From Candidatus Omnitrophota bacterium (GTDB lineage Bacteria; Omnitrophota; Gorgyraeia; Zapsychrales; Zapsychraceae), in the NCBI GenBank assembly GCA_029261055.1, contig JAJDCA010000003.1, positions 3,641-67,640 on the forward strand: 64,000 nt of DNA. Reading direction: 5' to 3'. The notes beneath the pieces were generated by a model. The model was given only the letters and a program-made list of their open reading frames with translations. It ran no database searches and was not told the DNA's origin. Shown piece after piece: positions 41,394-62,200 of the stretch (position 1 is the stretch's first letter; each line of letters opens with the position of its first letter). A program made the position numbers and the translations under genes.

Positions 41394-43514
41394 TTATTTT
41401 TCAGCTAATTCTGCTTCAGCTTTTTTCTTGCTGAGATTCATTCGGTTCATTTTATCAATTTCAACCAACTTAACTTTGAATTTGTCCCCAGGGTTACAAA
41501 TTGTTGTTGGGTCTTTGACATATTCATCGGATAATTCTGACACGTGAACCAATCCCTGTTTGCCAGGTAAGAATTCACAAAAAGCACCAAAATTCATGAC
41601 TTTGACAACCGTGGCATCATATATTTTGCCAATTTCCGGAGCTTGTGAAAATCCATTGATATAATCTAATGCTTTTTGGCTGGCTTCTCTACTCATTGAA
41701 GCAATAAGAACTGTGCCTTCATCATTAACATCAATAGATTCAACACCTGTCTCTTCAATGATTTTTTTAATCATTTTACCGCCAGGCCCAATAAGTTCAC
41801 CAATTTTTTCTGGTGGTATACTGGTAGAAGCGATGCGTGGTGCGAATTCAGAGGTATCAGCTTTTGGTTTATCAATACAAGATTCCATATTTTCTAAAAT
41901 GACATCTCTAGCTTCTTTTGCTTGGGTAATACCTTTTTCTAGGATATCAAGCGAAGCACCTTTGATTTTAAGATCTAATTGAATCGCGGTTAAACCATTT
42001 TTGGTTCCGGCAATTTTATAGTCCATATCACCAAAATGATCTTCTAATCCCATGATGTCAGTTAAGAGTCTGTAGTCACCATCTTCTTTGGTAACGAGCC
42101 CAATAGAAATTCCGGCCACAGGATTTTTAATCGGTACACCAGCATCCATTAAACTGAGACTTCCGGCACAAACACTAGCCATACTGGAGGATCCATTAGA
42201 TTCTAGAATTTCGGAAACAATACGAACTGTATAAGGAAAGTCATCTTTTTCCGGTAAAACTGCTTTAAGGGCCTTGGCAGCTAATGCACCGTGACCAATT
42301 TCACGTCGACCTGGTCCACGACTTCCGCGGGCTTCACCAACACTAAAAGCGGGGAAATTATAATGTAACATAAAGTTGTTATAGGCAAGACCTTCTAAGG
42401 ATTCGATCATCTGTTCATCACGTTTTGTTCCCAAGGTTATTGTTGCCAAACTTTGGGTTTGTCCACGTGTAAAAATGCTTGAACCGTGGGTGCGCGGGAG
42501 GATATTGATTTCAGAAGCAAGCGCGCGAAGTTCTTTAGCCCCACGTCCATCTGCTCGCTTGTCATCATTAAAAATGGAGTTGCGAACGATTTCATATTGG
42601 AGCTCTTCTAGTATCGCGTTAATATCACCTTTGGAAACTTCACGATTGTCGACTTTTAATGCATCGAAAACAGACATATCTGAAAAGATTTTTGTGTGAA
42701 GTGCACTGAGGGCATTTTCACGTTCCGCTTTGTCTGCGATTTTATAGGCATCTGCCATGCCAGTACCAACGAGTTCTGTTACTTTAGATTTTAAATCAGG
42801 GTGAGCATTAATAAGAGCAACTTCAATTTTTTCTTTACCAATTTGTTTTTGAAGTTCTAATTGAACTTCACGACTTGGCTGAAGTTGTTCGGTTGCAAAT
42901 TTTAAAGCGGCAACCATTTTCTCTTCTGGAACTTCATTCGACTCGCCTTCAATCATAACAATACCATCTTCAAGTCCGACGACCATCAAGTCCATAGCGC
43001 TTTGTTCTCGTTGTTCATAGGTTGGGTTAATGACAAATTCATCATCAATCATGCCCACACGCACAGCCCCGCAGGGTCCTTCAAAAGGAATGTCAGAAAT
43101 TGTTAAAGCCGCTGAAGCGCCGATGAGCGCCAGAATATCCGGGTCATTTTCGCCATCACTACTTAAAACAGTACATGTCACTACGACATCGTTATACATA
43201 CCTTTAGGAAAAAGCGGTCTGATAGGACGGTCAATCAGGCGGCACGTCAAGATTTCTTTTTGGGTAGGACGTCCTTCACGTTTAAAAAATCCTCCGGGAA
43301 TGCGACCGGCCGCATATGTTTTTTCTTGATATTCCACCATCAATGGAAAGAAATCAATGCCTTCTCTGGCTTTCTTTGACATACAAGCAGCAACCAAAAT
43401 GACGGTTCCACCATAAGTGATCATAACCGAGGCATTCGCCTGTTTAGCTATTTTGCCACTTTCAATAATAATATTTTTGTTACCAAATGGTATTTCAACA
43501 CGACCTAAACTCAT
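41394..43514 (-). CDS. pnp: polynucleotide phosphorylase
   Basis: Two RNase PH domains, plus KH and S1. The N-terminus is conserved. Confidence 0.95.
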   Translation of the reverse strand: MSLGRVEIPFGNKNIIIESGKIAKQANASVMITYGGTVILVAACMSKKAREGIDFFPLMVEYQEKTYAAGRIPGGFFKREGRPTQKEILTCRLIDRPIRPLFPKGMYNDVVVTCTVLSSDGENDPDILALIGASAALTISDIPFEGPCGAVRVGMIDDEFVINPTYEQREQSAMDLMVVGLEDGIVMIEGESNEVPEEKMVAALKFATEQLQPSREVQLELQKQIGKEKIEVALINAHPDLKSKVTELVGTGMADAYKIADKAERENALSALHTKIFSDMSVFDALKVDNREVSKGDINAILEELQYEIVRNSIFNDDKRADGRGAKELRALASEINILPRTHGSSIFTRGQTQSLATITLGTKRDEQMIESLEGLAYNNFMLHYNFPAFSVGEARGSRGPGRREIGHGALAAKALKAVLPEKDDFPYTVRIVSEILESNGSSSMASVCAGSLSLMDAGVPIKNPVAGISIGLVTKEDGDYRLLTDIMGLEDHFGDMDYKIAGTKNGLTAIQLDLKIKGASLDILEKGITQAKEARDVILENMESCIDKPKADTSEFAPRIASTSIPPEKIGELIGPGGKMIKKIIEETGVESIDVNDEGTVLIASMSREASQKALDYINGFSQAPEIGKIYDATVVKVMNFGAFCEFLPGKQGLVHVSELSDEYVKDPTTICNPGDKFKVKLVEIDKMNRMNLSKKKAEAELAEK

Positions 43515-43643: not shown

Positions 43644-43913
43644 TTACTTACGTAATCCTAATTTCGAAATTGTTTCTTGATATTTTTGAGGGTCTTGCTT
43701 TTTGAGATAAGCTAAAAGACGGCGTCTTTTTCCAATCATCATCAAAAGACCTCGTCTTGAATGAAAATCTTTTTTGTGGGACTTGAAATGATCGTTGAGA
43801 TAATTGATCTTTTCCGACAGAAGTGCAATTTGTACTGTGGGGGATCCTGTATCTTTGGCATGAACCTTAAAATCGTCAATAATCGCTGTTTTTTTTTCTT
43901 TAATTAAAACCAA
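43644..43913 (-). CDS. rpsO: 30S ribosomal protein S15
   Basis: 89 aa with the conserved ...[16 protein letters not shown] signature. Confidence 0.95.
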
Positions 43914-44040: not shown

Positions 44041-47000
44041 CTATCCAATATGGGGTGACGCATCAATCTCTTTGCGACAAAATTTCTGTCGATAGCGATC
44101 CAACCAGCTTACATCACCTTGCGTCGGTGACCCAAAAAGTCCGGGCGCCGTACGGCTAAAATCACTATCCATATCAGACTCCGACAGGCCCAAAAGCGGG
44201 AGCATACTGGGGATGCGGATCACGTTAAGAATCACCGGTACCACCCCATCAACGCGCATAGCCGCATCCGGCTGCTGCGCAAACGGCAGAACAATTCCAT
44301 TACCATCACGCTTCACCTCAAACTTCAACATCGCCGGATCCAGGTTAATACCCCCTGTTTTATTGGGCTGGGATACCTTAACCCTATTTTCCAGCATAGC
44401 ATTATCAGCGAGGTTTTGGAGGAGACTAATAATGTTTGATTCTTTTAGCAATGGTGAATCCTTAGAATACGTTATTTGTTGTTCATTCAAGATATTTTTT
44501 AATTTTTGATTTTGATTATTAAAATCAAAATTTAAATTAAGGTCTTTCTGAGCTTGATCAAGAATTTTTTGTCCGTAGGCCTTTTTTGCCAGGCGTACAC
44601 TCCTTTGAACAGATTTTATCATGTCTACAATATCGCCTTTATTAGCTTCCGCATTTTTTATAACGAGGTCCATAAACATCTGTTTGGATGCAAAAATCTC
44701 CAAACGTTCTTCACTAAATTTATTTTTATGTAATTCAATAAAAATATTAAGATATGATTTGAGATTGGGAAGTTCTTTCTTTAGTTCTATAAGATTATTG
44801 GTTTCAGATACCTCCACTTGTTCAATGTTTTTAAATGTTAGAAGAAATCCATCTTCCGGTATCTTTTTGTTCATTGCATCAACGATCGATGAAACGTGGT
44901 TTGTAATGTCGCTAGACATGGAATTGTCTACGCCCTTCATTATAATTTGATTATTAAATACATCTGCCGCTTCCCTTACATCCGTATGCTTCGCAATTCT
45001 ATTAATATCGTTATTAATGATAGGAATTTGGAAAAGTATTTCTCTTTTAAACGCATCTTCATTTTTTCGAAAGTCCCCTTTATAAGTACCCTTCCGTAGT
45101 TCATCTTGCTTAATTTTGTTTTCAGGGCCAATTACAGTTTCCTCCACAATCTTAAAATGGGTATGTCCTTCCTCTGGAAAAAACTGGGCGGATACTCTAA
45201 AGTACAAATCTTTTGTTTTTTGATTTTCTGGATTCTTTCTTGAATATATTATCATAAGTTCTTTCTCTACATCATTAGACTGAAAATTTGTATCCGACTC
45301 CTGCGTTATTATGACCTTAGTCAACGTTGCTACACCAGGAAGGGCGTTGCTGCCGCCTTCTAATAATTTCAGAAAAGAACCTCCACCTGTTGAAATAAAT
45401 TTTATTCCTTTAATTTCAAACTGGTTAATCGCTGTAACAGAGTCACCTCCCCCGGTTACGGTTAGGTTGTCCGCTAAGGCAAGGCTCTTTCCTACATCCT
45501 TTGTCCCGTTTTGAGCGAATGAAAGGACATCAAATGCACCCATAGGGCCATTCCAAAAAATAGATTGTTCTGGATTTTCTTCCGATATTTTTTGAATTTC
45601 AGATGTAAATAATTGAACCGTTTTCGGGCCGATATCCACCATCATCCAACCATCCTCAACCCCTTCTCTTATATCTGTTATAATTCTATTATTTGCTCCT
45701 TCCTCAAATTTATCTGCCACAACCCCATCTATCGGTAAAATAATTTTATCGGAGTATTTTCTAAATAATTCTTTAGCTAATTCAACATCTTTATCTTGTG
45801 CCAGCGAAGCGCCCATGTCAATTTTTTGGGCCTTTAAAAACGCATTAGCCATAGCGCCGCCTATTAAAAGTTTTTTTAAATTAGGGTTTTTTAATAATGT
45901 TTCTAGCATGATGATTTTATCTGAAACTTTACTACCCCCCACCACAGCCAGACCAGTGTTCGTTCGGACTTTTTCAGCCATTTTTAATTCTTTATCTAAA
46001 AGAAGTCCGGATACTCTGATGGGCACAATACCTTCAGCACCTGTTACCGAGGCATGATTACGATGCGCGGCCCCAAACGCATCGTTAATAAACACATCGA
46101 CACCTTTGTATAATTTTTGTGAAAATTGACTGTGTGTTTCACGGGCTTTTTCAACATTTTCTTTCGCTATCTGGATCACATGGGGGTCACTACTTTTTTT
46201 TGCAGCTTTAAGGACATCTTCAGCCTCGGATAAAATTGTCTCCGCTTTATTAAAACGAACATTTTCAAGGACAATGATAGAGTTTTTGAACGCTTTTTCA
46301 TCAACGCCCGGTCTTTGCATATAAGCTTCAACATCCGCCATTGTTTTAAAGATAGGGTTATAATAAATACGGCCCAAGCCATCGTCCCATAATTTTTCAG
46401 CTATATTTTTAACGACTTTTTTAAGAGAAAGGGTCGGGTCTTCCTGTCCTTCCGGCCGACCCATATGAGCCGTAATAATTATCATCTCCGGGGACTTATC
46501 CATGAGATATTTAATTGTTGGAATGGATTCTGCAATACGCGTATCATCCGTTATTTCCCCCGTTTTTTCATCAATTGGAACATTCAACTCCAACCGCATG
46601 GCCACCCGTTTGTCCTTTAACTCTTCGTCAGATAAATCTTTGAGGTTTTTTGTCGAAGCCATAGCATTATCCCTTAGGTTTACTGTGTCACCAGCTAATA
46701 ATCGTCGCACATCATCGGCAACGGCTCTGTTGTCTGATGCCGCATCTCCTCCTCTGATATGTTGCAACAAATAGTATTCAACGCCTTTATTTTTGGAGGT
46801 ACCCAAGGAATATGTTATGAGTCCCTCATGGGTGGTTACTTGTTTGGCATTTTCAGGAATATTGTTAAATAATTCTTTATCATTTTTAGCTAAGTCAAGG
46901 TTAACAAATGGTTCAAAAATATGGTTTAACACTAATTTGGAGGTTTTGACAATGGATGGATTTGATTTATTTGATTCGATTGTTGTCAAAAGATCGTGCA

Positions 47001-49269
47001 GTTCATCTGCGTTGATGTCAATATTATTTATACTTGACGTAATTTTATTATTTATTTTTATTAAAGTTGTTGTTTTGATATTTTTTTCAATTTCAGAAGT
47101 ATTTTGTACAGAATTCGTATTTGTATAAATTGCATCAATTTGGTTTTTTTGATGACTTTCCAATCCATCAATCTGCTGCGCTAATTCTTCAAGCGGCTTC
47201 TGGACTTCTTCAATCATCATAGAATGATCCACTATCCATTGAAATTTATCTGAAGGTATCTTTCCCTCAAATTTTTCAACAAACTGATTAACAAGATCTA
47301 TGTTATTTGATATTTCTTGAGTAACGTCTTCTGATTCAAGCATTTGCTCTATTTTTTTGGTTAATGGGTTTGTTTCATACAATTCTTTAAAATCATTTTG
47401 AAGGTTAGTTACCATATTTCGTACTATTCCTTCTGTGAATTTGTTTTGTTTTTCTGCAACTATATCTGTTAATGACTTTATATCTTCCGGTCGTTCTTGC
47501 TTTGCGTTAGCTACCGCCGTAATGAAATTTTGAACGAGAGTTACTTCTTCATTTTTCGCAGAAATGAAGCCATGCTCTTCGGGATTGTTAAAAAAAGTGT
47601 TTTTTCTTTTTTTTACGATCGCAGCATACGAGGGTATTTTTTGTAGAAAATTATTATTATATTGAGATTCAATATCCTGCACAATATTTTTTAATGCCTG
47701 TAGAGAAGGGGATCTTGTGTATCTGATATGCTTTACATCCATCACTTTTTCAATAAAAATTTTAACAGCATTTAATTCTTTAGGTTCAACAAAGATTTGT
47801 TCCTTCATTTTTTGATGATAACTATCATCTCCGGAAGAGTTAATATATTTATTGCGTAGCTCTTTTATTCCTTTGTAAGCAGTAAAAATATTGTAGCCGG
47901 TATACTTCTTGTCTAATGTATTTAAAATAGTTTCTAATTCTTTAATGGAAAGGGTAGTGCCTTGTATTATCAACCTCGCACGCATTGTTTCCAAATCTTC
48001 GGGCAATTGAGAATTATCAACCTGTTGTAGAAAGGTTGCTTTTGATATTTCCGTTATCGCCGCATTATTAACAATCCCTAGCGTATTGGTCGCCACTTGC
48101 CAGTTTATTCCGGTTTGAAGTTCTTCAACCTCTAGTTTTGTAACGGTCATAGAACTGTCAAGGATCATTGCGACATCTGTAATTTTTGTTCCACCGGAGA
48201 AATATTTGCGGGGGATGATTTCTTGGGTGGCCGGGTCATAGTCTTCTTTAATCAGGTCGTAAACGCCTTTTTTAAAGGATTCCACGTATTGGTCGTAAAT
48301 TTTTTGATTAATCTGTTTATCTTGTGTGTCTACACCCAAAGTTTTATTTTGATCCACAATCATATGACCCAATAAACTTTCTTTGAGGTTTTTTTTGTAC
48401 CAGGTAGCCAGAATCACTGAATTGTAGACTTGACGCAATTGAGAAAACGTGGTGCCTTGGTTGACTTCCTTTTCAATGGCCGGGATCAGGACCTCTCGAA
48501 CGACATCAGAGGAAACTCCACTGACAATTTTAGCTTCATCCGTCACAAGGCTGTCTAGACCGAATGATTCTTTATCCATATTTTCTTGTAGGGCCACATA
48601 ATCTTCTTCCAGCATTACTTTAAGGTAACTGTCTGTCACAAACACGCTGGATTCCCGCTCATAAACTGAGGCTTTTTCAGGCACAATCCATATTTTATTA
48701 AAGGTATTCATCGGAATATCCGTGGTGCCAAACCGGGCATAGGCTTGTTCATGCACTTTATTCCAAAAATCAGCGCCTAATTCCTCTTCAGGGTACATTA
48801 AGGAGGCGGTTACCTGTTTGAGCATGTAGTCTTGAGCCAAAAGGTCGCGGCCCATTTGGGTATCGCCAAAATTTTCCGGAATAATACGGTCAGATTCATA
48901 CGGGGAAAGGTTTACCCACATATCTTCATGGGGAATAGTTAATGAAGCTAGAAAATATTTGATTAAACGGGTGGATTCGGCCTTTAATTCATCGCCTTCA
49001 ATGTCTGTATCCCCTGTATTGATCATAAAATTGATACGCAGTGGATCATTCGCATGAAAGGTAAGCCCATTCATCAAGGGTGGCGTAAAAACGTCGCTTA
49101 AGGGGATCATCGTTCCGGGAATCGGCAAATTTAGTACATTTTGTGGCGCGGTCTGCGCTCGGACCACGGAAGGTGGCATAATGGTTGTAGCGCTGAAAGT
49201 TATAGCCATTAAAAGAGATATGACTCTGTAGGGTAATCGTATGCATCGTTTTTGCATGGACAAGTTCAT
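44041..49269 (-). CDS. 1742-aa secreted/membrane-anchored giant protein containing an intact phosphoglycerate kinase domain (approx. 45300-46620) flanked by uncharacterised regions
   Basis: N-terminal signal/anchor. The PGK motifs are all present: KRVAMRLELNVP, HMGRP, VLENVRFNKAE, NDAFGAAHRNHAS, VVGGSKVSDKI, FWNGPMGAFD and TGGGDSVTA. Confidence 0.8.
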   Translation of the reverse strand: MNLSMQKRCIRLPYRVISLLMAITFSATTIMPPSVVRAQTAPQNVLNLPIPGTMIPLSDVFTPPLMNGLTFHANDPLRINFMINTGDTDIEGDELKAESTRLIKYFLASLTIPHEDMWVNLSPYESDRIIPENFGDTQMGRDLLAQDYMLKQVTASLMYPEEELGADFWNKVHEQAYARFGTTDIPMNTFNKIWIVPEKASVYERESSVFVTDSYLKVMLEEDYVALQENMDKESFGLDSLVTDEAKIVSGVSSDVVREVLIPAIEKEVNQGTTFSQLRQVYNSVILATWYKKNLKESLLGHMIVDQNKTLGVDTQDKQINQKIYDQYVESFKKGVYDLIKEDYDPATQEIIPRKYFSGGTKITDVAMILDSSMTVTKLEVEELQTGINWQVATNTLGIVNNAAITEISKATFLQQVDNSQLPEDLETMRARLIIQGTTLSIKELETILNTLDKKYTGYNIFTAYKGIKELRNKYINSSGDDSYHQKMKEQIFVEPKELNAVKIFIEKVMDVKHIRYTRSPSLQALKNIVQDIESQYNNNFLQKIPSYAAIVKKRKNTFFNNPEEHGFISAKNEEVTLVQNFITAVANAKQERPEDIKSLTDIVAEKQNKFTEGIVRNMVTNLQNDFKELYETNPLTKKIEQMLESEDVTQEISNNIDLVNQFVEKFEGKIPSDKFQWIVDHSMMIEEVQKPLEELAQQIDGLESHQKNQIDAIYTNTNSVQNTSEIEKNIKTTTLIKINNKITSSINNIDINADELHDLLTTIESNKSNPSIVKTSKLVLNHIFEPFVNLDLAKNDKELFNNIPENAKQVTTHEGLITYSLGTSKNKGVEYYLLQHIRGGDAASDNRAVADDVRRLLAGDTVNLRDNAMASTKNLKDLSDEELKDKRVAMRLELNVPIDEKTGEITDDTRIAESIPTIKYLMDKSPEMIIITAHMGRPEGQEDPTLSLKKVVKNIAEKLWDDGLGRIYYNPIFKTMADVEAYMQRPGVDEKAFKNSIIVLENVRFNKAETILSEAEDVLKAAKKSSDPHVIQIAKENVEKARETHSQFSQKLYKGVDVFINDAFGAAHRNHASVTGAEGIVPIRVSGLLLDKELKMAEKVRTNTGLAVVGGSKVSDKIIMLETLLKNPNLKKLLIGGAMANAFLKAQKIDMGASLAQDKDVELAKELFRKYSDKIILPIDGVVADKFEEGANNRIITDIREGVEDGWMMVDIGPKTVQLFTSEIQKISEENPEQSIFWNGPMGAFDVLSFAQNGTKDVGKSLALADNLTVTGGGDSVTAINQFEIKGIKFISTGGGSFLKLLEGGSNALPGVATLTKVIITQESDTNFQSNDVEKELMIIYSRKNPENQKTKDLYFRVSAQFFPEEGHTHFKIVEETVIGPENKIKQDELRKGTYKGDFRKNEDAFKREILFQIPIINNDINRIAKHTDVREAADVFNNQIIMKGVDNSMSSDITNHVSSIVDAMNKKIPEDGFLLTFKNIEQVEVSETNNLIELKKELPNLKSYLNIFIELHKNKFSEERLEIFASKQMFMDLVIKNAEANKGDIVDMIKSVQRSVRLAKKAYGQKILDQAQKDLNLNFDFNNQNQKLKNILNEQQITYSKDSPLLKESNIISLLQNLADNAMLENRVKVSQPNKTGGINLDPAMLKFEVKRDGNGIVLPFAQQPDAAMRVDGVVPVILNVIRIPSMLPLLGLSESDMDSDFSRTAPGLFGSPTQGDVSWLDRYRQKFCRKEIDASPHIG

Positions 49270-49463
49270 CTGAAATATCCTCCGGTTTTAATCTTTATTA
49301 AAAATGGGTAAAAAACGCAAAGAAAGCGTTTTTTATTGACTATATTTGAAGTGTAACATATTTTTGGCATGAAGTGCAAGGTGGGGAGCAAAAAAATTAA
49401 AAAATATTGAATAATTTGTGGAAAAGTAAAAAAATATATTATAATTATTTAAATCAAGCGGTA

Positions 49464-50281: not shown

Positions 50282-51586
50282 TTATTCATGATTTTCCATT
50301 TTCACCGCTTTTTTAAATTTTTTTAACTGCTCGCGATAGAAGTCTACAGAAGGGTGCTTTTCGATGAGATTTTTTTCAATAGCGATAGCTTCGTCAATAC
50401 GGTTGAGTTTGTACAGAATTTCGGCTTTGGTATCTAAGAAGGCTGATTCTTCAGAGGAAATGGTGAGTGCTTGGTTAATGAACTCAAGAGCTTTATCTAA
50501 TTGGACATTTTCTTCGGCATAAAGCCAGGCGAGATCATTGTAAATTTCAGCGCGTTCAGGTTCTTTAGTCAGACTTTCTAATAGAAGTGTTTCTTTAGTG
50601 CTTGCATCAAGCATAGGGTATTGGGATATGTATTGGGCGTAGGCTGGATTGGATAATGTGAGTATGATTATAGGAATAATAATTGAAGAGGCATTATAGA
50701 CATAGTGAAAAACAATTGATGGAATGATAGATCCGCTGGAAGCACGCAGCATTGTTAAAATAAATCCTAATAACATCACGGCACTAATGGCCAGCCAGTC
50801 TCCCCAGTATTGGGCCACATGTGAGAGTCCAAAAAAGAGTGAAATACTGACGACGGCAAATGTTGTGCCTTTCAGGCGCTGCAAGACTTGAAAGAAATAC
50901 CCTCGAAAAATGACTTCTTCAAGAAATGGGGCGGCCAAAATTGCAAGAAGAATAAACATTATAAGGGCCCCTGCAGAAGGTGTGGTGGTTAAGATTTCGC
51001 TTAAGGGGGTGTTTGGGCTTACTTTACGTGTTGTAATCAGGAATGATGCGATTGTTGCAAAGGTCAAACTCAAGAAAGCCGGTCTGAGGACTAAGGTAAA
51101 AAAAGATTTTCCTTTGTGGTCGAGTCCAAGACTTTTCCAAAATCCAATGTTAACTGGCCTTCGCACGGTTTTATAGATAAGAAAAATAGTTAAAAAGGAG
51201 GAAAAAATAGTAATGATTATCAGGTTCCATAATTCAGTTTTGAGTGGCGTAAATATTAATGAAGCTACTTCGAGTACGATTGCAAAAATAGTTATACCCA
51301 GGGTGGATAAAATAATGATGCCCGTGGCATCCAACCCTGTATCTTCTCTAGTAAGATATAGCCCTTCTTCCGAAGCCGCATTATCCTTTTCGATAATATT
51401 GAGAATTTTGTAACGTTTGATAAGATATATTGGTACGGTAATAATTGAAAATAAAAAAGTTAAAACAGCTAACCACACTGGTTTAAACTTGATGTGTTCA
51501 AAGTACAGGTCGGCACCTTTTTTATGTAGAAAATAGGCATCAAGATAAACAACCAAAGAAAAAGCAAAAATATACGTAATCGACAT
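50282..51586 (-). CDS. CPBP-family (CAAX/Abi) intramembrane metalloprotease with C-terminal TPR repeats
   Basis: EEVIFRGYFF...FGLSH...H motifs in the TM region. TPR-like helices lie in the last ~110 aa. Confidence 0.75.
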   Translation of the reverse strand: MSITYIFAFSLVVYLDAYFLHKKGADLYFEHIKFKPVWLAVLTFLFSIITVPIYLIKRYKILNIIEKDNAASEEGLYLTREDTGLDATGIIILSTLGITIFAIVLEVASLIFTPLKTELWNLIIITIFSSFLTIFLIYKTVRRPVNIGFWKSLGLDHKGKSFFTLVLRPAFLSLTFATIASFLITTRKVSPNTPLSEILTTTPSAGALIMFILLAILAAPFLEEVIFRGYFFQVLQRLKGTTFAVVSISLFFGLSHVAQYWGDWLAISAVMLLGFILTMLRASSGSIIPSIVFHYVYNASSIIIPIIILTLSNPAYAQYISQYPMLDASTKETLLLESLTKEPERAEIYNDLAWLYAEENVQLDKALEFINQALTISSEESAFLDTKAEILYKLNRIDEAIAIEKNLIEKHPSVDFYREQLKKFKKAVKMENHE

Positions 51587-51698: not shown

Positions 51699-51953
51699 AT
51701 GATTATGAAAGTTTTTAATAAAGGTCAGGTTGTTATTCCAGCACGTATTCGTAAGACTTTAGGGATTGAAATAGGAGATGTGGTGGATGTAGAAATTAAT
51801 CCACAAAAACGTAGTTTAGAGCTTAAGGTAACCGATCAAAAAAAAGCAAAGGCTCTTGCCGGTTGTTTTCGAAAATATAAAAAAAACATACCATTTCCTT
51901 CTCGTAAGAAAATGCATGAAACCTTTACAAAAGGATTGATGAATGAAAAGTAA
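51699..51953 (+). CDS. AbrB/MazE-type (SpoVT_AbrB) antitoxin, VapB-like
   Basis: Swapped-hairpin N-terminus (KGQVVIPARIRKTLGIEIGDVVDVEI). It overlaps the downstream PIN gene by 11 nt. Confidence 0.7.
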   Translation: MIMKVFNKGQVVIPARIRKTLGIEIGDVVDVEINPQKRSLELKVTDQKKAKALAGCFRKYKKNIPFPSRKKMHETFTKGLMNEK

Positions 51954-52359
51954 GTTAATGGATACAAATGTTATTGTGCGTTATTTTGTAGAAGATCCAG
52001 TTAAGGTGCATTCAAAGTTTAAAGGGGTTTTTTCGTTTTTTCCAAAGGTAGAATCAGGTGCTGTGAGTGTGGAACTTCCGGATTTAGTTGTTTTTGAAGT
52101 TTTTTTTGTTTTGACCAACATTTATAAAATTCCACAAGTTGATGCAGCACAAAAACTTAGTGATCTTATTGCGTTTCGAGGGTTTTTGATGCAGAATAAA
52201 CCTCTTATGACCTCTTGTCTTCAAAAATTACAAAAAGAAAAAATCGATTTAGTTGATGCTTATTTGCTTTCTCTTGCGAAACAAAAAGGAATTTTGGCTG
52301 TATATTCTTTTGACAAAGATTTATCCAAACACGGCCTGCAATTGGCTGATGTGAAGTAG
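51943..52359 (+). CDS. PIN-domain toxin (VapC-like)
   Basis: Acidic residues at MDTNVIV, ...DAYL... and SFDKD, with the right spacing for PIN. Confidence 0.75.
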   Translation: MKSKLMDTNVIVRYFVEDPVKVHSKFKGVFSFFPKVESGAVSVELPDLVVFEVFFVLTNIYKIPQVDAAQKLSDLIAFRGFLMQNKPLMTSCLQKLQKEKIDLVDAYLLSLAKQKGILAVYSFDKDLSKHGLQLADVK

Positions 52360-52368
52360 GTTTAAGGA

Positions 52369-53208
52369 ATGGCTTTTAAATCATCACTCCAATTTTCTAT
52401 TATTATTCCCACGCATAATAGGCGGGCTTTTCTTGAAATCGCGGTCTCTTCTGTTTTGAAGCAAAGTGATGCGGATTTTGAGTTGATTGTTGTCGATGAT
52501 GGATCAACCGATGAGACCAAGGATTATATTCAAACCATTCATGATCCACGCTTTGTGTATTGTTATCAAAATAATCAAGGGGTTTCCAAGGCACGTAATG
52601 CGGGGCTGAAGCAGGCTCGAGGTCAATGGATTGCCTTTCTGGATTCGGATGATCAATGGACACCACAGAAGTTAGAAATAACACGGCAATATATCGAAAA
52701 GTTTCCTTCTATTTCAATATTTTACACGGAAGAAGTTTGGTATCGCAATGGTGCAATTTTAAATCAAAAGAAAAAACATAAAAATCCGGATGGGCATGTT
52801 TATATTCAGGCTCTTCCCTTATGTTGTATGAGCATATCGACAGCCGTGATTAATCGTACCGTTTTTGAGGCAATTGGCATATTTGATAAAGATTTCGTTG
52901 CGTGTGAAGACTATGATTTTTGGTTACGGGCCACGCATCGTTATGAAGTCAAATTAATCCCTGAGGCTTTGACTCTTAAAGACGGCGGTCGGCCGGATCA
53001 ACTGTCTTCCAGCATTTGGGGATTGGATCGGTTTCGCATCAAGGCCTTGTCCAAGATGCTTAAAAGTGGGCAGCTTTCCAAAAAAGATTATGCTGCAACC
53101 TATCAAGAAATACTTAAAAAATCGCGTGTGTATATAGCTGGAGCTAAAAAACGAGGGAAAATTGAAGAGGTTCGAAAAATGGTATCAGATCTTAATCGTT
53201 TTAAATAA
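52369..53208 (+). CDS. family 2 glycosyltransferase
   Basis: FSIIIPTHN...VVDDGSTD...NQGVSKARNAGL...DSDD matches the GT2 motifs. Confidence 0.85.
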   Translation: MAFKSSLQFSIIIPTHNRRAFLEIAVSSVLKQSDADFELIVVDDGSTDETKDYIQTIHDPRFVYCYQNNQGVSKARNAGLKQARGQWIAFLDSDDQWTPQKLEITRQYIEKFPSISIFYTEEVWYRNGAILNQKKKHKNPDGHVYIQALPLCCMSISTAVINRTVFEAIGIFDKDFVACEDYDFWLRATHRYEVKLIPEALTLKDGGRPDQLSSSIWGLDRFRIKALSKMLKSGQLSKKDYAATYQEILKKSRVYIAGAKKRGKIEEVRKMVSDLNRFK

Positions 53209-53225
53209 GCAACGATAGGATAATT

Positions 53226-56200
53226 TTAATGCTTTGGGTTTATGGTGATACTTCGCTCTTTTTCTAAAAATATTTCCCCTTCATCAAGAATATCCTCTAC
53301 TTGAAAGAATTTAATTTTGATAGGATAACGCGTTGATTCAGAAGAAAAATTAAAATATTTATGCGAAATTCTAATAGTTTCTGATTGGCCAGGTCTAATG
53401 CGCACTGTTTTTACATCTTCTGCCAGGATATCAAATACGCGATCCTGCCCCCAATCAACCACAGCTTCTACTTTAACTATTGCCGAATCCTGGGAAGATA
53501 TCACGGCTTTAATAACGACATCATCTCCTGACGTAATATCACTGCCACAAGCCACCGTCCCTAAACCATCCGGATTGTCACAAAGAATTTCAAAATTCTT
53601 GATTGTGAGTAATGATTGAGGAATAACCTTAACATCCGGATACGTTTTAGTAATACTCAATCCTTGATCATTTATTAATTTTAATGTTACAGTATAATTT
53701 TCTTCCACACTAACAGGATCATATGGGTGTGAATAAGATAAAGATTTTCTGGATGACACAGTAAAAGATTCAATAGTCTCTACAGTTCCGTCCCCATAAT
53801 CAATAGAACCGTGCAGTGTTTGTGTTGTGTCAAATGCTCTGATAGTCGCCTTTAGATTCGCTAATCCCCATGAACCATCAAGGATATCATTATTAATTTC
53901 CACATTACCATCTTCTATCCAAAAATCAGGATACACCGTTATCGTTTTTGATTGTTCCTGGGTGTAATTATTATCATGGACTTTTACTCTAATAGCATAT
54001 TCTTTGGGATCTGTTAGGGGCAGAGTGTACGTTTTTAATTTATTTATTTGAAAGTTATTTCCCGGGCTGATGGTAAATGGTGCTATATCTTTTGCACCAT
54101 CTCCCCAAGATAATCTCCCCGCTAAATTAACGGTTTTTACTGTGCTAATTTCTGCCTTTATCTCAAATTCTTTTCCAATATTCACGCGCGAGGGGGCTGA
54201 TAAAGATGCTATTGAAAAGGCCGCGTTGCCTGCATGATTCACAGATACTGGCACATCTTTTTTTACAGTTTTGTCATCCCCCGACACCTCTACACTAATA
54301 TTATAATTTTCTGTATACGGAGCTAGCCCCTTTGTAAAATTAGATTGTTTATATTCATGTGTTGTTGCCGTTGCTGTGTATGTTCCGTCAGAACCAATCA
54401 AAAAATTTCTGGGCCCATTATTAAAGGAATCTTCTTCACCATCCCCCCAATAAACCCTTCCGTTAAGATTTGCCCCGGGGGTCCCCGTCACAATAATTGA
54501 AAGCATTACTGTTTCATTTTCAGCCACGAATTCTTTATTCAGCGTGACTGAATCAATATTAAACACATCGAAACAATTTGTTTCTGCACATCCAGGAGGA
54601 GATATTTCTACACATTGCCCTAAATTATTACACTTTTGTCCTGAAGAACAATCATTAACATCGACACATTCCGGAGGATCAATCACCGGACCATCATTAT
54701 CCCTATTATCCAGTCCTTTCGGTAATGCCAACTCTTGGACAATAGTAAACGTACGCTTATGTTCATTTTGCATTTTATTATTCATGACCACCCTAACCCG
54801 TTTATTGGCTGGATTGGAATCGGCATACGTATAAGAACGAAAATTTCCAGGCTGATCTATCAAAAATCCTGACTTAACAAAAGAATCGTTAGGATCAGCA
54901 GGCCCCCAACCTCCTAATGAATCGCCTCTTTCAAAATAAATTTTGGCATCAAACCAGTCACGATTATATAAAGGCATAACATTGACCTTTAGACAGTTTG
55001 TACAGGAATTTTGACCTGCAACAATATTTTTGTCTACAGACCACACAGATGATGCATAAGGCATCATCGGCCATTCAACAGTTTTTGTTATGGCATCTTG
55101 TCCTAAATTATTTTTGACTGTTAAGGTGACTTCGTATGTGGCTGGAGATACGATACGTCCTTTTTCCATAAACGTAAATTCACGATGGTTTGTTGATCCT
55201 TCATCCAAGACTGTTTCCGTGCCTGTTTTCAAATTACGAAATTTCCATACATGACTGCTCATTCCGCCACCGACCGAAGTGCTTTGAAAATAATATTTCT
55301 CTTGAGGGTCAAAACTTCTCTGATAATACTTAAAATCTGCGATGGGGGCTGACTCTGCAGAACTGGAGGCCTGTACAGACATAAACCCTTCCGCTCTCCT
55401 CGTTGAAAGAAACGGGGAATCTTCCACAGTAAAAAAGTCCGATTCAGAAACTAACCTGTTTTGTGGGGTAACTTTAAGGCCTCGGGAAAAATTAACATTT
55501 ATAAAAAAAGTATGTCCGCCGAATTTATTAGATACCGTCAGTTCGACACGATAACTCCCATCATTAAAGGCATGTTCAAATACCGCATTATTACCGCGTT
55601 TAATTACGGTATCATTATCATCAAGCGTATCCCCTTTTGTATCAATTACCTTCCATTCCCGGCCTGTCACCTGTCCTGTTGAGACGTCTTCATAAGTTAC
55701 TGTACGTCCACTCGTGCTTTGTTCTCTGAAAAATGCTGTAGGCACATTCGGGTCAATGATAAACGTGGTTACGCTGCTGCCATCACTTGTATTATCGAAA
55801 GGAAGACTGTTCGGACAGGTTTGCCCATCGGCCGTCACCGCCGTACGAAATTGACTTGGGCTCAAGCTCTGTCGGGTGAACGAACTGTTTTTAACCAATT
55901 TACCATTCTGCCCACGATTCACAAACACCTCTTGAGAAGCCATCACCGTAAGATTTTTGGAAATAACATTGACTGTGTAACGGTCTGCTTCATCGTAAAA
56001 ACGCGTAGCCGTAATCCCGCCGGGTTGTGTAACCCCATCACCAAACTCCCAACGCATAATTTTAGTGGTATCTACATGAGACACTTTAAATGATACCTGT
56101 CCGGGATTATTTTTTTCATCCGGGAATCGATACTCCAAAAGTCCCTGTCCAGTTTTTCCTCCATCAGAAGGAATTAAACCTTTGGGGGCGGGGCAGGCAT

Positions 56201-59200
56201 CAACGACTTCATCCGGAATATCAATTGGTATTATTTCTTCTTTTGACACAACATGCGTTCCCTGTTCATCATCAATTTTTATGCTTAAGTTAACCTTTAT
56301 TTCTACTGTTTCAGGTATTATTGAATATTCAAAATTTTGACCCAAGTCGTCATTCGATACAAACATCGCTATCAAATCACCCTCCGCATTTTCTGCATTA
56401 ATAGACCAAAGCCAATCTATGGCCTCGATGTTATCCACTTCTAAATCCCCGCTAAACTGTATTGTTTCACTATCAAAAAATTCATGGGTAAATAAAACGT
56501 CCTTGCTTGTACGAGTAGGACCGGATACTGCAGTATCTTCATCATCCAGTATCAGGACAATATGAGCCTCTGAATCTTCTGATTCTATTTTTGACGTTAC
56601 TGGATTTACAACATCATGCGACACACGTAAGGTAATATATACAGGCTCGGTAGGATCTTCAATATTTGTCGTTGCAAGTAAGTCGTGTGTTTTATTATCT
56701 ATGGGGGGGAAATATAATTTATCTGGAGTTGTTTTTAATAAAAGTTCTGCTTTTGAGGCAAAAACATTATCGCCTTTAATTAATGCCAACGTAAGTTCCA
56801 TTCCTTGTGGAAAATCATCACTCATTTGAAAATATGGCATTTGAGAATAAATTTCTATTTCATTACCCTCCGTCTTTTCCACAAAAAGCTTTACCTCGAA
56901 ACCTTCATCTAATTTTACCGGAGGTGTTCTTTTTGAAGGATCTACCGTGTCAAAAGTAACAACGTCGCCTCCAGATGAATATTTAAAACCGTTAACATCC
57001 GTTACAATTAGATTTATAAAAAAACGATTATAATCATCAAAGCTCCCAACAGGAAGAGTATAAATTGGATCTATTTCGGTAAGCGTAGTTGTAACTTTTA
57101 CATCATTTAAATCTGTCGATGTTATTCTCCATTCAAGAAGATCAACATCTAGGCCATCAATATCATTAAAAAATTGTACAGTTTGCGAATCTAAAACTTC
57201 ATAAGTAAAATCAATTAAATAATCTTCAGGATGACGGCATCCCTCCCCTCCGTTCAAAGACGTTCTAAATTTTGTTGGTACACTCAAAGTATTGCTTGCC
57301 GTAGAAGCCGGGCAGACATCAAAGGTATTATTTTGTACACCCAGTTCTCGTTTAACAATATCAATAGCCCGTTGATCAAATAAAATATCTCCATGCGGAT
57401 TGTCTGTTATTTGTGGTAAGGACGTAAAATTATCCCCCAACCCTCTTGTATAGTTCTGAACAAATATGTCATCCGACGGAAGGCTTGCCGGAGGAATATG
57501 TTTGTCTCCTTCTATGGCAATTACAAATTGATCCGCCTTTCCATTAAATTGGCTAACAGACTGAGGACTAAAAAGATTTTTCTGAATATCTCCATACGGA
57601 TACATTGCACGTGTTATATCTCCATATTTAGTGAATTTGGTTCCTATGGGAGCAAAACAAGATCTTGCGGTATTTGATCCACCTAATATTGGAGTTAATT
57701 CAATAGCTTTAAGTCCGCTGAATTCTCCTTCCTTTTCAAAACGCATGGCCTCGCGAAGGACAATAGCTCCATAGGAATGATCAATAACCGTAACGGAATC
57801 CCCCACCGGATTCTCTCGTTTAAACAGCCACCAATGATTAGCTAATTGCGATCCAAGAAGCTCAATTTTTTCAAGATAATCATACACAAAATAAACAATA
57901 TTGTATTCCTCCTTCAACTTATCATCGTTCAAGTAAAATGAAAAAATGTCTTTCGGAGAACGAGAATCAGCTCCGGGAATAAATAAAACCGTCGGTTTAC
58001 CGGCATCAAAACTCCCCAAAGAATAAATCCCAGGGGTTTCTGATATAGCCCCCCCTCCAACATCAAAAGGAATTTCACATGCACAACCGTCCCCTTCGTT
58101 CAGAGACGTTCTAAATTTCTCTTGTCCGCCCAAAGCACTGATGGTTGTAGACGCAGGGCAACCATCGCTATCTTCACCCCCATCAAGAAAAACTTCTATA
58201 TCAAACGTATTCGGTTCAACCACACCAAGCATTCTAATAGCGACATTTGTCACAGGATCATGAAAAACATCTCCCTTTTTCCATATAAAATCACCAGAAT
58301 TTCTTTTAGTAATAAGATGTGTGTCCCCTGTTGATATCCTCTCTCCAGCCATATATATGACAACTCCTTGATCTACCCCTGCCATATTATTGAAGGCTGT
58401 AGCTTTATTATATTCTACATAGATAGGCATGTTTGTACCACGGCCCAACTTTAAAATACTTGGTTTATCCTCTTGCATGGCTCTTAAAGGATAAAATGTG
58501 GTTACTCCTGCTCGTACTGCAGAACTATCCTCTTCCATAACAGCTTCTATACTTAAATCAAAAAATCCTGCTTTCTCTCGACGATACCCATTAAAATTAA
58601 GAACAAACCTATTTCCCATTGTGTCCCAAGGGTCAGCATAACTTTCGCTGCACCTGTCGGAATCATCACTAAAATCAACACAATTCCAAGAATTAGCATG
58701 ATCCCATTCAAATGTATGATGCCCCAATTCATGAGATAAAGTAGATGATTCCTCTTTATTATACGCCGTATTTACAATAATCACCTTGCTGTGACTTTTA
58801 ACAATGCTTTTATCGATATATTTTACCGACCCGCCAAGCGTATCAAGTTTTCTCAAACATGATCCATCCAAATGAATAAAAAATACAATAGCTGTATAAT
58901 CTTGAAAAATTATGTTATTGTCAGCCTTTTTAGTTACTTCTTTAACAAAGCTTTCAAAAATCTTAATTTCTTCAGCCCTATCACCACCACATAGTTGATT
59001 TGTAAACCCTGCGGTTATACCAAAACCATCTTCGCTGTAAGAATTATCTTTATTCATTTCGACTGTGTACCACCCAAAAATATCTGCCATCACAGAACTT
59101 ATTTTGCCATTTGAAATGGACGTATATAATTGATTCACATCGGAAACCATTTGATTTATTTCTGTATCTATAATGGGCTTTGACTGATCGTCCTGAAAAT

Positions 59201-62200
59201 TTACTTTAATAGCGGCAATTTTGATGTTTGAGGGAATGGAAGTGGAAGCTGAATTTATGACTTCGATACCGCTGCCTTGCGTGCTTACACGCCCCTTAAA
59301 AGCAATATGATGATCAATCCCAAAACCTCTTAGTTTAATCGTACTCCCTGAAATCACATTTGAGGGAAATCCCTGAGCCGGATAAAGAAAGAAGTGTGTT
59401 TTGTCTTTTGTTAATGAATAGAATACATCAGCCCTGCCTTCATTAAAATAATCTGCAATCGAAATCCCCAATACTCCTTCAACCTCCACTTCCTGTTCCA
59501 CACAACCCCTCACCTCTTCTGGCATTAAATTACGGACAGTCTTGGGAAGGATCAGCTCAAGCGCCTTTTCCGGGTTTTCCCGCATAGTTTTAATCAAAAG
59601 GGCTTTGCGTTTTCGAACAAAATCAAGAAGTCCACGATTGTCTCCCCGGCGTCTGGCATCAAAGATTTTTTGCGTGTTTTCTTCTAATGTGCCATTCGCC
59701 TCTGTCGCGCAGCCAAAACTATCTAGTGAGCCTTCATCCGTTTTTGGGGTGTCATCCACAATAGGTTTATCATCCTTTTCGTCGATACCTACCTTGACGG
59801 ATAGCGTATGGATATCTTTAGTTCCCCTTCGTCTGAGCTCTTGATAAGCGGTTAAAGTAACCGTATATTCTCCCGCTTCGGAAAATGTATGCGTGGGGTT
59901 TTCTTCATAACTTATATTGGTGTTTCCACCTAAAAAACCTCTTAAAATAGGAATGCCATATCCACCTAGACTTGTATTAGTTTGACTCTTGCGATCATCA
60001 CCAAAATTCCATGTAAAAGATTTAGCATTTAGAGATGAATTTTTAAACTTAACTTCAAACACCCCTTCCCGAATTTCGGTTACCTTATAATCAAAATCAG
60101 CTATGACGGCAGCCGGATCGAGGACTTCGATATAATCTGTTTTGATTTCCTGATCTGTATCTAAGGATAACGTGCTTCGTAAAAAAACTGTATATCTACC
60201 TGGTTCCGTATATGTGTGCATGGGGTTTTGTTCGATACTCTCCACCCCATTATTTTGATTCAAATCAAAATCCCATATCCATTGATCAGGATCGCCGATG
60301 GTTGTGTCGGTAAATTGAACCGTTAGAGGCGCGACTCCTTTTTTTATGGAAGAGTCAAAATTTGTAATAAATAGATTTGGTAAGGGGTTCTCATCATCAG
60401 CCGGTATAACGGTTATTGAATTACTGACACTAGGCCTAAAGAAATCCCCCGTAGTAGACTTTCCTCGAACTTCAAAGGTATACGTTTCACCTATTTCTAA
60501 ATTTAGGTTGTTGGCTGTTGCCAAATTAACTAGACCGACAGATGTCCAGCCTTGGATCTCTGTAAGGCCTACTGCTTTAAAATCAATTTTATTTGAAAAA
60601 ATTCGATACTGATATTCAATAATATCTGATTCAGGTTTATAGGGTGTCCAGGTAGCTTGGAGTTGTGTGAGTGAAGTGGTTGTTGGATTTATCGTGGTTA
60701 CCACAGGTATTGAATGGGTAAGAAGAACTAAACGTTCAAATGTTTTTATGACCTTTCCATCTGCTTTATTAATTTCTGCATAAAAAATATTTTCTCCAAT
60801 GCTCACTGTTCTTGTGTCCCAGGATAAAGAATAATTACGGTTTCCAGGAGTATCCGGGGCATTTTTCCCTACAGCATCGGATCCTAATAAAGCAGGATCA
60901 AGTATTTGGGTTCCGTTAAAAGGTTTTCTAAAAAACTTAACTGATGTAATATCTGCATTGTCTTGTACAGAAACTTTGAGGGTTACTTTACCGCTGATGT
61001 TCCTGTCTTCAGTGACTGGCGAAATTATGAGTTGCGCGCTATCCTTAATAGTTACCTCAACCTTCAGGCTTGTATCTGTTGACGGGCCTATTACGATATC
61101 CATACCAGAATCTTGTGTAGAAAAAGGCATATTTTCCAGAAAGTCAGCGTCATAAAAATCTTTTCTCGCATCATCAAAACTGTTGGGAGTCCCATCTAAA
61201 AGATACGTTTCAAACGGAGCTTTATTGTACATAATTAAAGCTCCAAAAGGTGGGTCATGGCTCCATTGGTCAAACTGGTATACATTTTTATCAAGACCTT
61301 TTGGTTGCCGAAATTCAACATAAAAATGTTCCCAGAATTTTGTCGTGTGTATCTTGAGTGCAAGTGATTTCTTTGCTAAATCTTCATAAGGATTTAACGT
61401 ATATTCATTTGATTTTTTCACATTAATTCTGTTTGTATCATCCAACCATCCGACAATATCTTTATTGGCAGCATGTGGATGAACTCTGCGACTCATAACA
61501 TCATAAAGGTTGGGTTCTTTTATGGAACAAGCTAACAAGGTATTTTCCGGAATAAAAACTTGATCGCCGCAGTCTAATCCCTGTGCATGATGAAATCCAA
61601 AATTATGCCCCATTTCATGTTCAGGAGCACCACCGGGTTCGCCTATTTCATTATATAAAAATTGTGTCTGTAGCCATGATATTGTGACATTAATGCTTTC
61701 ACCTGGATTAAGTAGAAGAGATCTCTTTCCAATTGTTCCAAACCCTGCCCAGTCGCAACCCAGATCATTTAACGGTGATATAATAATAATACGTTCATAT
61801 TGCTTAAAATTAATTGTTTCTTTTGATTTTTGCAAGACTGCTTCTAAGATGGTATCAGTATCGCAGGTCGCATTGATCGGCAATTTTTGCCAATCCACTA
61901 CTCTTCCGCTAAAAAATACTTTGCCAAACGAAACGTCCTGATAAAAAGAGTCGATTGAATCATTTTCGCCAAAAATACGGTTGTGCATTTGGTCTTTTGT
62001 AAAAGGTTCCTCTCTTTTGTCTTGAAAATTGGCAGGAATAACAATAGTTTTTTGCTCACCAAATATTTTGAAATCGGGTGTATTTAAAACAGATAACCCC
62101 ATGTTCTTCTCCGGAGTTTCCTGTGAAGGACGATTGAAATTCAATAATAAATGCGTATCAAAAAGAACCCCTGAAGCTTGAACAATGTTTCCTGAATGTA

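Follow-up and report, generated by a model that had tools for sequence, protein, structure and literature searches.

A phosphoglycerate kinase carried between the conserved end modules of a cysteine-depleted, predicted exported protein family of Omnitrophota

The window analyzed here, a 64,000-nucleotide stretch of contig JAJDCA010000003.1 from a Candidatus Omnitrophota bacterium, contains a gene for a 1742-residue protein (~192 kDa) in which a phosphoglycerate kinase (PGK) domain is embedded. The gene (positions 44041–49269, minus strand) is a single open reading frame (ORF) of 1742 codons with an uninterrupted frame and a sole, terminal stop codon. An identical protein is encoded by a 67,697-bp NCBI contig and, in a separate assembly, by a Logan contig from SRR15505515. 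The public gene call (P0001, 1712 residues) begins at M31 and so lacks the signal peptide; because a Shine-Dalgarno sequence precedes M1 and homologs retain residues 1–30, M1 is favored as the start and the database start is judged to be wrong. Topology predictions made across the family from database sequences may likewise miss signal peptides where starts were called too late. A terminator-like hairpin ends the upstream helix-turn-helix (HTH) gene, and the PGK gene thus opens a new transcription unit (Table 1).

The N-terminus reads MNLSMQKRCIRLPYRVISLLMAITFSATTIMPPSVVRA, with QT following the predicted cleavage site, and contains a K/R-rich n-region, a hydrophobic core and a PP ahead of the VRA-Q junction, corresponding to the n-, h- and c-regions of a Sec signal. 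Kyte-Doolittle hydropathy in 19-residue windows exceeded 1.4 at only two places, the signal peptide and a proline-rich stretch of a conserved C-terminal region (the C-module, see below). Of the protein's only two cysteines, one belongs to the signal peptide and the other to the C-terminal tail. GC content along the gene ranges from 0.29 to 0.45, with 0.29–0.37 in two variable linkers versus 0.40–0.45 in the conserved modules.

PF00162 is the sole known Pfam domain in the protein. The match extends over profile positions 2–378 of 379 at E = 6e-103 (345 bits against a cut-off of 27), and PDB PGK sequences align to the domain at E = 2.6e-71. The motifs RLELNVP, HMGRP, ENVRF, AHRNHAS, GGSKVSDKI, NGPMGAFD and GGGDS are all present in the translation. 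A preliminary description, made from the sequence alone, had reported a complete PGK inside a giant signal-peptide protein with rpsO-pnp directly downstream on the same strand; the near full-length profile match, the quoted motifs, the Sec signal and the gene order all bear this out. The domain departs from the canonical stand-alone form of the enzyme (~390–420 residues, no targeting signal) in lying inside the 1742-residue signal-peptide protein. The NCBIfam model for the PGK/TIM fusion (PRK13962) scored 305 bits against its cut-off of 883 and matched only at positions 4–394 of 645, its PGK part.

Sixteen positions that we take to be the key residues of the enzyme (human numbering R38, H62, R65, R122, H169, R170, K215, D218, K219, N336, E343, D374, T375 and G394–396) were compared with the consensus of 116 canonical PGKs and with 19 embedded PGKs. 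These positions supply the basic patch for 3-phosphoglycerate (3-PG), the catalytic lysine and the nucleotide- and Mg-binding residues. The window domain is identical at 15 of the 16, and its equivalent of E343 is an aspartate, as in 12 of the 19 embedded PGKs. Judged by these residues, the window PGK is quite likely to be catalytically active. The domain contains no cysteine and carries an insertion of ~32 residues behind ENVRF (about residues 1010–1041). Its highest identity to any PGK recovered in a homolog search with the domain alone is only 37–40%; that search was saturated by generic PGKs, did not recover the family members discussed below, and does not show the origin of the domain. 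The best scorers in it were three proteins of 797–798 residues (P0121–P0123) that have PGK sequence at their start and end and a ~400-residue insertion directly after ENLRYH, the site of the 32-residue insertion in the window PGK.

Table 1. Features of the PGK carrier gene and its surroundings (positions in the window)
Feature	Position	Strand	Details
Terminator-like hairpin closing the upstream HTH gene	49309–49335	-	10-bp stem, then T-run
Shine-Dalgarno GGAGG	49279–49283	-	9 nt upstream of the ATG at 49269
Sec-type signal peptide, residues 1–38	49156–49269	-	predicted cleavage between VRA and Q
Conserved N-module, residues 39–360	48190–49155	-	LNLPxPG ... WVNLSPYE ... KVMLEEDY ... RKYFSGG
Variable linker 1, residues 361–879	46633–48189	-	AT-rich, N/K/E-rich; no homologs or domains detected
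Phosphoglycerate kinase cargo domain, residues 880–1305	45355–46632	-	Pfam PF00162
Variable linker 2, residues 1306–1626	44392–45354	-	no homologs or domains detected
Conserved C-module, residues 1627–1705	44155–44391	-	GGINLDPAMLKFEVKRDGNGIVLP ... VDGVVPVILNVIRIPSMLPLLG
Variable C-terminal tail, residues 1706–1742, and stop codon	44041–44154	-
rpsO	43644–43913	-
pnp	41394–43514	-
Rce1-like/TPR protease gene	50282–51586
MazE-like antitoxin and PIN-domain toxin pair	51699–52359	+
Family 2 glycosyltransferase gene	52369–53208
PKD-domain ORF	53226–63365	-	3379 residues

Homologs of the whole protein share regions other than the PGK domain. A search of 5.8 billion proteins returned more than 4,000 matches, and the conserved regions were residues 1 to ~360 (50–65% identity) and ~1630–1705 (40–55%). 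These regions, referred to as the N-module and the C-module, bracket variable cargo in at least 110 homologs. The N-module profile, run on 1.84 billion cluster representatives (clusters at 50% identity), identified 8,332 representatives at E ≤ 1e-3, of which 6,636 reached E ≤ 1e-30. Among the 150 of these 8,332 matches for which position and size were listed, the N-module was at the protein N-terminus in every case, and protein lengths ranged from 420 to 5,312 residues. A scan of GTDB genomes with the N-module found at least 586 stretches, of which 78 loci, several from a single genome in some cases, were kept; they comprise 70 complete family ORFs and 755 flanking ORFs. In all 70 complete ORFs the N-module lies at the extreme N-terminus and the C-module at the extreme C-terminus, and family ORFs without a C-module run off the available sequence or are frameshifted. 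The window protein itself scored 594 bits against the A1 profile of the N-module and 90.5 bits against the hidden Markov model of the C-module. No further family copies were found in the 64-kb window. Five loci have N-module and C-module ORFs in adjacent or overlapping frames (L059, 1896–6608; L070, 6420–9996; L035, 5651–12991; L024, 7930–17211; L006, 221–3547); these are frameshifted or pseudogenized members, or sequencing errors.

The named matches of the protein search come from Omnitrophota/Omnitrophica metagenome-assembled genomes (MAGs), and the 78 loci are from Omnitrophota MAGs save for a few with generic or doubtful labels; among the named records, a single one is not an Omnitrophota MAG. 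One family member (L077) lies on a 6.3-kb contig, DYOU01000064.1, of a MAG labeled Candidatus Elulimicrobium, a taxon that NCBI assigns to the Patescibacteria group and not to Omnitrophota, and is a case of either mis-binning or horizontal transfer; many other family records are labeled 'uncultured Planctomycetales'. Taken together, these results make it almost certain that the family and its capped architecture are real, that the family is very large, and that it is nearly confined to Omnitrophota. The embedding of a PGK, which the preliminary description had called highly unusual, is thus real, though it is no one-off: the window protein is one member of a family with thousands. The same description had left the flanks of the PGK domain as uncharacterized. 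They do lack any match in the databases searched, but the two modules overlooked there are the parts that define the family. This N-/C-module carrier family is apparently undescribed, and PGK is only one of its many cargoes.

The N-module, both linkers and the C-module gave no match to Pfam, NCBIfam or PDB sequences, singly or as profiles. The N-module is predicted to be a mixed alpha/beta, helix-rich structure and not a beta-helix. The C-module has a core of ~65 residues with the consensus GGIxLNPALLDLQIKRDGNGVPLPxxxQPIxxMxIxGFxPVIINVTPVxNLPLLLG, followed by a variable, mostly acidic tail of ~40 residues. Structure prediction of the flanking regions had been proposed in the preliminary description; AF2 applied to the isolated C-module (43 homologs) gave no regular fold and no predicted strands (pLDDT 66, pTM 0.24), which fits a docking or recognition peptide that would fold or act only with a partner. 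A stop-transfer anchor was rejected for the C-module, whose hydrophobic segment contains three prolines and is flanked by acidic rather than basic residues, and so were C-terminal sorting signals of the type IX secretion system (T9SS), sortase and exosortase types, as the variable ~40-residue tail follows the C-module. The two linkers returned zero homologs, paralogs included, and their sequences seem to evolve almost freely.

The cargo between the modules is rich in central metabolic enzymes. Glycolytic domains include PGI, FBA (class II aldolase), TIM, GAPDH, PGK, enolase and PPDK, nearly the whole pathway. PGM, UGPase (UDP-glucose pyrophosphorylase), FBPase, PEPCK, adenylate kinase and glycogen synthase are also present, and further members carry GGDEF or receiver domains, HEAT repeats or metallophosphatases. 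About half of the family proteins have no recognizable cargo. A single protein, P0010, contains GAPDH, PGK, enolase and aldolase between its N- and C-modules, and PGK lies between the same two modules in more than 20 proteins other than that of the window. On a crude neighbor-joining (NJ) tree, the embedded PGKs are slightly nearer to one another than to canonical PGKs and form long branches outside the canonical cluster, which suggests an old, fast-evolving PGK lineage internal to the family rather than a recent capture of a housekeeping gene. Tandem arrays of three to five family genes on the same strand with short gaps are common in the loci (L015, L022, L031, L045 and L057), suggesting that the family grew by local duplication followed by swapping of cargo.

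The export signal seen in the window protein is general to the family. Among 197 members with complete N-termini, 178 (~90%) show 'AQ' at most 18 residues ahead of the LNLPxPG motif. The residue at -3 is small (A/S/V/G/T) in 163 of these 178, and the stretch preceding the hydrophobic core has a median net charge of +3. This pattern, that of signal peptidase I, predicts that everything downstream would be exported. A lipoprotein signal was rejected since the lipobox cysteine is missing, as was a prepilin-type signal, because charged residues follow the FIE-like start.

The mature parts of the family proteins are nearly devoid of cysteine. In 211 of them, totaling 346,348 residues, there are 159 cysteines (0.046%), and 127 of the 211 (median length of the proteins 1,532 residues) have none. 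The 755 neighboring ORFs contain 1.38% cysteine, and those neighbors crudely scored as signal-peptide-positive contain 1.39%. The ratio of family to neighbors is 0.03, a ~30-fold depletion; the next lowest residue has a ratio of 0.55 and the others lie within about two-fold. Embedded PGK domains have one cysteine in 9,005 residues, compared with 0.20% in canonical PGKs. In the proteins checked, nearly all cysteines retained outside the signal peptide and tail are ones needed for catalysis. P0010, P0072, P0102 and P0040 are otherwise nearly cysteine-free proteins of 1.3–3 kaa (thousand residues); the first three keep the active-site SCTTN-type cysteine of GAPDH (motifs SNASCTTNA, GSCTTG and SCASCTTNA), and the cysteines kept in P0040 are those of a radical-SAM CxxxCxxC motif. 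Other cysteines in the proteins checked are in the signal peptide or tail, along with one in the aldolase region of P0010. P0010 appears to contain two GAPDH active-site motifs.

These counts point to strong selection against dispensable thiols, and because catalytic cysteines were spared in the GAPDH and radical-SAM cargo, the chemistry itself appears to have been kept by selection. Autotransporter and two-partner-secretion passengers, as well as exported proteins of Dsb-less bacteria, are established cases of cysteine-poor proteins. By analogy with them, the purge in the carrier family may mirror an extracytoplasmic route or compartment in which free thiols and disulfides are harmful.

Genes around the carrier include an HTH regulator, an Rce1-like protease, a PIN/MazE pair, a glycosyltransferase, rpsO, pnp, ftsK and rodZ. 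The remainder of the window is ordinary chromosome, with riboflavin and NAD biosynthesis genes, two-component systems, a TonB-dependent receptor gene, ftsK, rodZ and miaB; other glycolytic genes are not present in it. The receptor gene indicates that the source organism has an outer membrane. The toxin-antitoxin pair is flanked by the protease and glycosyltransferase genes, as listed in Table 1. A PKD-domain ORF 4 kb upstream has neither an N-module nor a C-module and has a normal cysteine content (30 residues, 0.89%); its product is a different kind of large, probably surface-located protein that is unrelated to the PGK carrier.

The position of the PGK gene next to rpsO-pnp looks incidental, because rpsO has a promoter-like site of its own, the family has no recurrent neighbors, and a family gene occurs at the other end of the same gene block elsewhere. 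The promoter-like site is a weak consensus match, and the scan that located it gave no more sites than shuffled sequence. The other locus (L053, 694–14521, from the Omnitrophota MAG UBA10174) shares with the window the pnp-ftsK-rodZ-miaB-pgsA-pgpA-BaxI block, but the family gene there lies after BaxI, not before rpsO, and carries no PGK. This different arrangement indicates that insertion sites of family genes are not conserved.

Considering the domain, the modules, the signal and the cysteine counts together, we give a probability of roughly 0.6 to the reading that the PGK encoded by the window gene is exported and catalytically active, borne on a scaffold for export or anchoring that is specific to the family. 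For the capped protein as such, a location outside the cytoplasm is likely, as far as sequence features can tell. The preliminary description had thought export and surface tethering plausible, and the conserved signal-peptidase site and the family-wide loss of cysteine lend support to this. The Sec signal peptide would carry the protein, unfolded, across the inner membrane, after which the N-module, the C-module or both would serve a family-specific step of outer-membrane passage, anchoring or assembly that tolerates neither disulfides nor free thiols. The PGK would then work extracytoplasmically alongside the GAPDH, enolase, TIM, aldolase, PGI, PGM and PPDK of sister proteins, in the periplasm or cell coat, where the bacterium touches a host or prey cell, or within the latter. 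Its reaction, 1,3-bisphosphoglycerate (1,3-BPG) + ADP ↔ 3-phosphoglycerate + ATP, would proceed on released sugar phosphates. Cells of Omnitrophota are ultra-small, and a host-dependent or predatory life is predicted for many of them (PMC10066038); such a setting is plausible for this reason, and because sugar phosphates and adenylates would be available there. The wider proposal that Omnitrophota export a near-complete set of glycolytic and sugar-phosphate enzymes on cysteine-free carriers, harvest ATP, phosphoenolpyruvate (PEP) or sugar phosphates from the contents of host cells, outside the cytoplasm or even within prey, and use for this a novel thiol-intolerant route of export or anchoring, is put forward tentatively and is on balance doubtful.

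Several points weigh against an exported, active PGK. Neither a normal periplasm nor open water is expected to contain ATP/ADP or 1,3-BPG, and a special setting must therefore be assumed. Signal peptides were assigned by simple rules and not by a trained predictor. No fold could be assigned to the N-module or the C-module. When the 755 ORFs flanking the family genes in the 78 loci were clustered, no gene family occurred in more than six loci, and no transporter or other partner recurred. Were the genome to lack a stand-alone pgk, the window PGK would have to serve cytosolic glycolysis. Finally, the PGK domains of the sister proteins P0004–P0009, P0073 and P0094 have lost substrate-binding residues (the equivalents of R65, H169/R170 or K215), binding residues are also lost in P0045, and degenerate sisters such as P0073, P0094 and P0045 indicate, at the level of sequence, that not all PGK cargo in the family is active.

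The question of cytosolic glycolysis leads to a different account, in which the hydrophobic N-terminal segment stays uncleaved as an anchor, most of the chain remains cytoplasmic, and the window PGK and the other capped enzymes are the working glycolytic enzymes of the cell, held on a common scaffold as a membrane-tethered cytoplasmic metabolon. The cargo is classic cytosolic central metabolism that acts on cytosolic substrates, and sometimes, as in P0010 (GAPDH-PGK-enolase), the enzymes follow pathway order. The window and 1.3 Mb of related flanks contain no stand-alone pgk, although only about 0.65 would be expected there by chance, and the main text of a 2026 preprint weighs a cytoplasmic-face reading for long proteins with transmembrane segments only (10.64898/2026.06.07.730766). 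Such a metabolon is nonetheless unlikely. In ~90% of members, positive charge precedes the hydrophobic core and a site of the A-x-A|Q type follows it, which predicts an inward N-terminus with the rest of the protein exported; moreover, the ~30-fold purge of cysteine, confined to the family and sparing only catalytic residues, is hard to account for in an anaerobe's cytoplasm, and the embedded PGKs lie on long branches apart from canonical PGKs, unlike housekeeping enzymes.

Loss of substrate-binding residues in several sister PGK domains is what one would expect if the fold, on a surface protein, had a structural or ligand-binding role, for example that of an adhesin or sensor. That many family members carry HEAT repeats or nothing recognizable also fits such a non-catalytic use, and surface PGK of streptococci binds host proteins (PMC7729029). 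For the window protein this is improbable, more so than a cytoplasmic metabolon, given that its only change among the key residues is E to D and that catalytic cysteines were selectively kept in the GAPDH and radical-SAM cargo. The suggestions in the preliminary description of a moonlighting PGK or a domesticated nucleotide-binding scaffold are, for the same reasons, not favored, all 16 key residues being kept or conservatively changed and catalytic cysteines being kept in sister proteins. An artefact, whether a chimeric contig or two to three merged genes, could be suspected from the metagenomic assembly of the contig and from the varying GC content within the gene. The GC dips match the unconserved linkers, however, and a chimera or an in-frame stop, either of which the preliminary description had said would refute it, was excluded by the unbroken frame, the identical protein in two assemblies and the more than 20 PGK-bearing relatives. 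As the N- and C-modules invariably cap the two termini of a single ORF, an assembly or annotation error is extremely improbable.

If the capped proteins do act outside the cytoplasm, a whole phylum of nanobacteria would deploy central energy metabolism beyond the cell boundary, and the carriers would offer a molecular handle on how Omnitrophota exploit hosts or prey. 'Glycolysis-positive' annotations would need rereading, since KO or Pfam matches may represent exported cargo instead of housekeeping enzymes. The N- and C-modules rank among the larger protein families without annotation and are probably the mark of a targeting or assembly system that is new. With a simple sequence rule, the presence of both modules and the lack of cysteine, thousands of Omnitrophota proteins now called 'hypothetical' could be found and classified. 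By keeping catalytic cysteines selectively, the family has in effect carried out a mutagenesis experiment in nature, demonstrating that diverse enzymes can go thiol-free, which is of interest for protein engineering.

Passengers of type V secretion (TpsA proteins and autotransporters) have a Sec signal, a conserved N-terminal module of ~300 residues and a long variable region; they are huge, paralog-rich with swappable ends, and scarce in cysteine. The carrier family resembles them in its Sec signal, its conserved head of ~320 residues, its variable region, its paralogs and its few cysteines, but its cargo consists of metabolic enzymes and that of type V systems of adhesins or toxins. A two-partner secretion (TPS) domain or autotransporter barrel gave no Pfam match in the carrier even at E ≤ 5, and no Omp85-type partner adjoins the family genes in the 78 loci. 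A type V substrate was rejected on this absence of a barrel or TPS domain, together with an N-module that is not a beta-helix and a C-module of ~65 residues without a predicted fold. RTX-type substrates of type I secretion lack an N-terminal signal peptide and have Ca-binding GGxGxD nonapeptide repeats before a C-terminal signal. This class was likewise rejected, as the carrier has a Sec-type signal, no RTX or other repeat family in Pfam and a single GGINLD only. Type V and type I substrates are therefore architectural analogues only.

Closer counterparts have been described in the same phylum. West-Roberts et al. (2023; 10.1101/2023.11.21.568195) report, in the main text of their preprint, TIM, PGI, FBPase, PGM, aldolase and PPDK domains in 'Archaeovorin' proteins of at least 30,000 residues; the enzyme domains are predicted there to be extracellular, with doubts voiced about the topology, and PGK is missing from the domain list given. 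The main text of the 2026 preprint (10.64898/2026.06.07.730766) describes 'multi-enzyme metabolic cluster' proteins of at least 10,000 residues with a topology of signal peptide plus transmembrane segments. As far as these texts go, both independently predict extracytoplasmic sugar-phosphate enzyme domains in giant Omnitrophota proteins, and signal peptides, sugar-phosphate enzymes, HEAT repeats, GGDEF and receiver domains are common to their proteins and the carrier family. The Archaeovorin-type proteins are described in them as having at least 10,000–30,000 residues, many transmembrane helices, C39/S8 peptidase and SecA-like domains, and flanking genes for type II secretion or type IV pili (T2SS/T4P). 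The PGK carrier, in contrast, has 1.7 kaa and one hydrophobic N-terminal segment; no T2SS/T4P-like locus, pilZ or solute-binding genes are near its gene in the annotated parts of the window, and none recur in the 78 loci. Term searches of the main text of both preprints found no N-/C-module family, proteins of 0.5–5 kaa, PGK cargo or cysteine depletion, and no description of a capped, cysteine-purged family of this kind was found in the searchable literature.

Covalent joining of PGK to other modules is known from the PGK-TIM fusion of Thermotoga and from the trypanosomatid PAS-PGK and PGK-like PGK-CNB-HTH-TM proteins, some kinetoplastid forms of PGK being membrane-associated (PMC7729029). The carrier shares this covalent linkage with them, but the known fusions are cytosolic or glycosomal, much smaller and without a signal peptide, and the PGK-like ones are catalytically dead (PMC7729029). 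Surface PGK of streptococci is extracytoplasmic, as is proposed here, but is an ordinary enzyme of ~400 residues without a signal peptide or carrier (PMC7729029); the carrier PGK, unlike it, has a dedicated gene, an export signal, carrier modules and a cysteine-free sequence. Exported, enzyme-bearing Omnitrophota proteins are thus a kind that had already been noticed, and what is apparently new is a capped, unannotated carrier family with a purge of cysteine that spares the catalytic residues.

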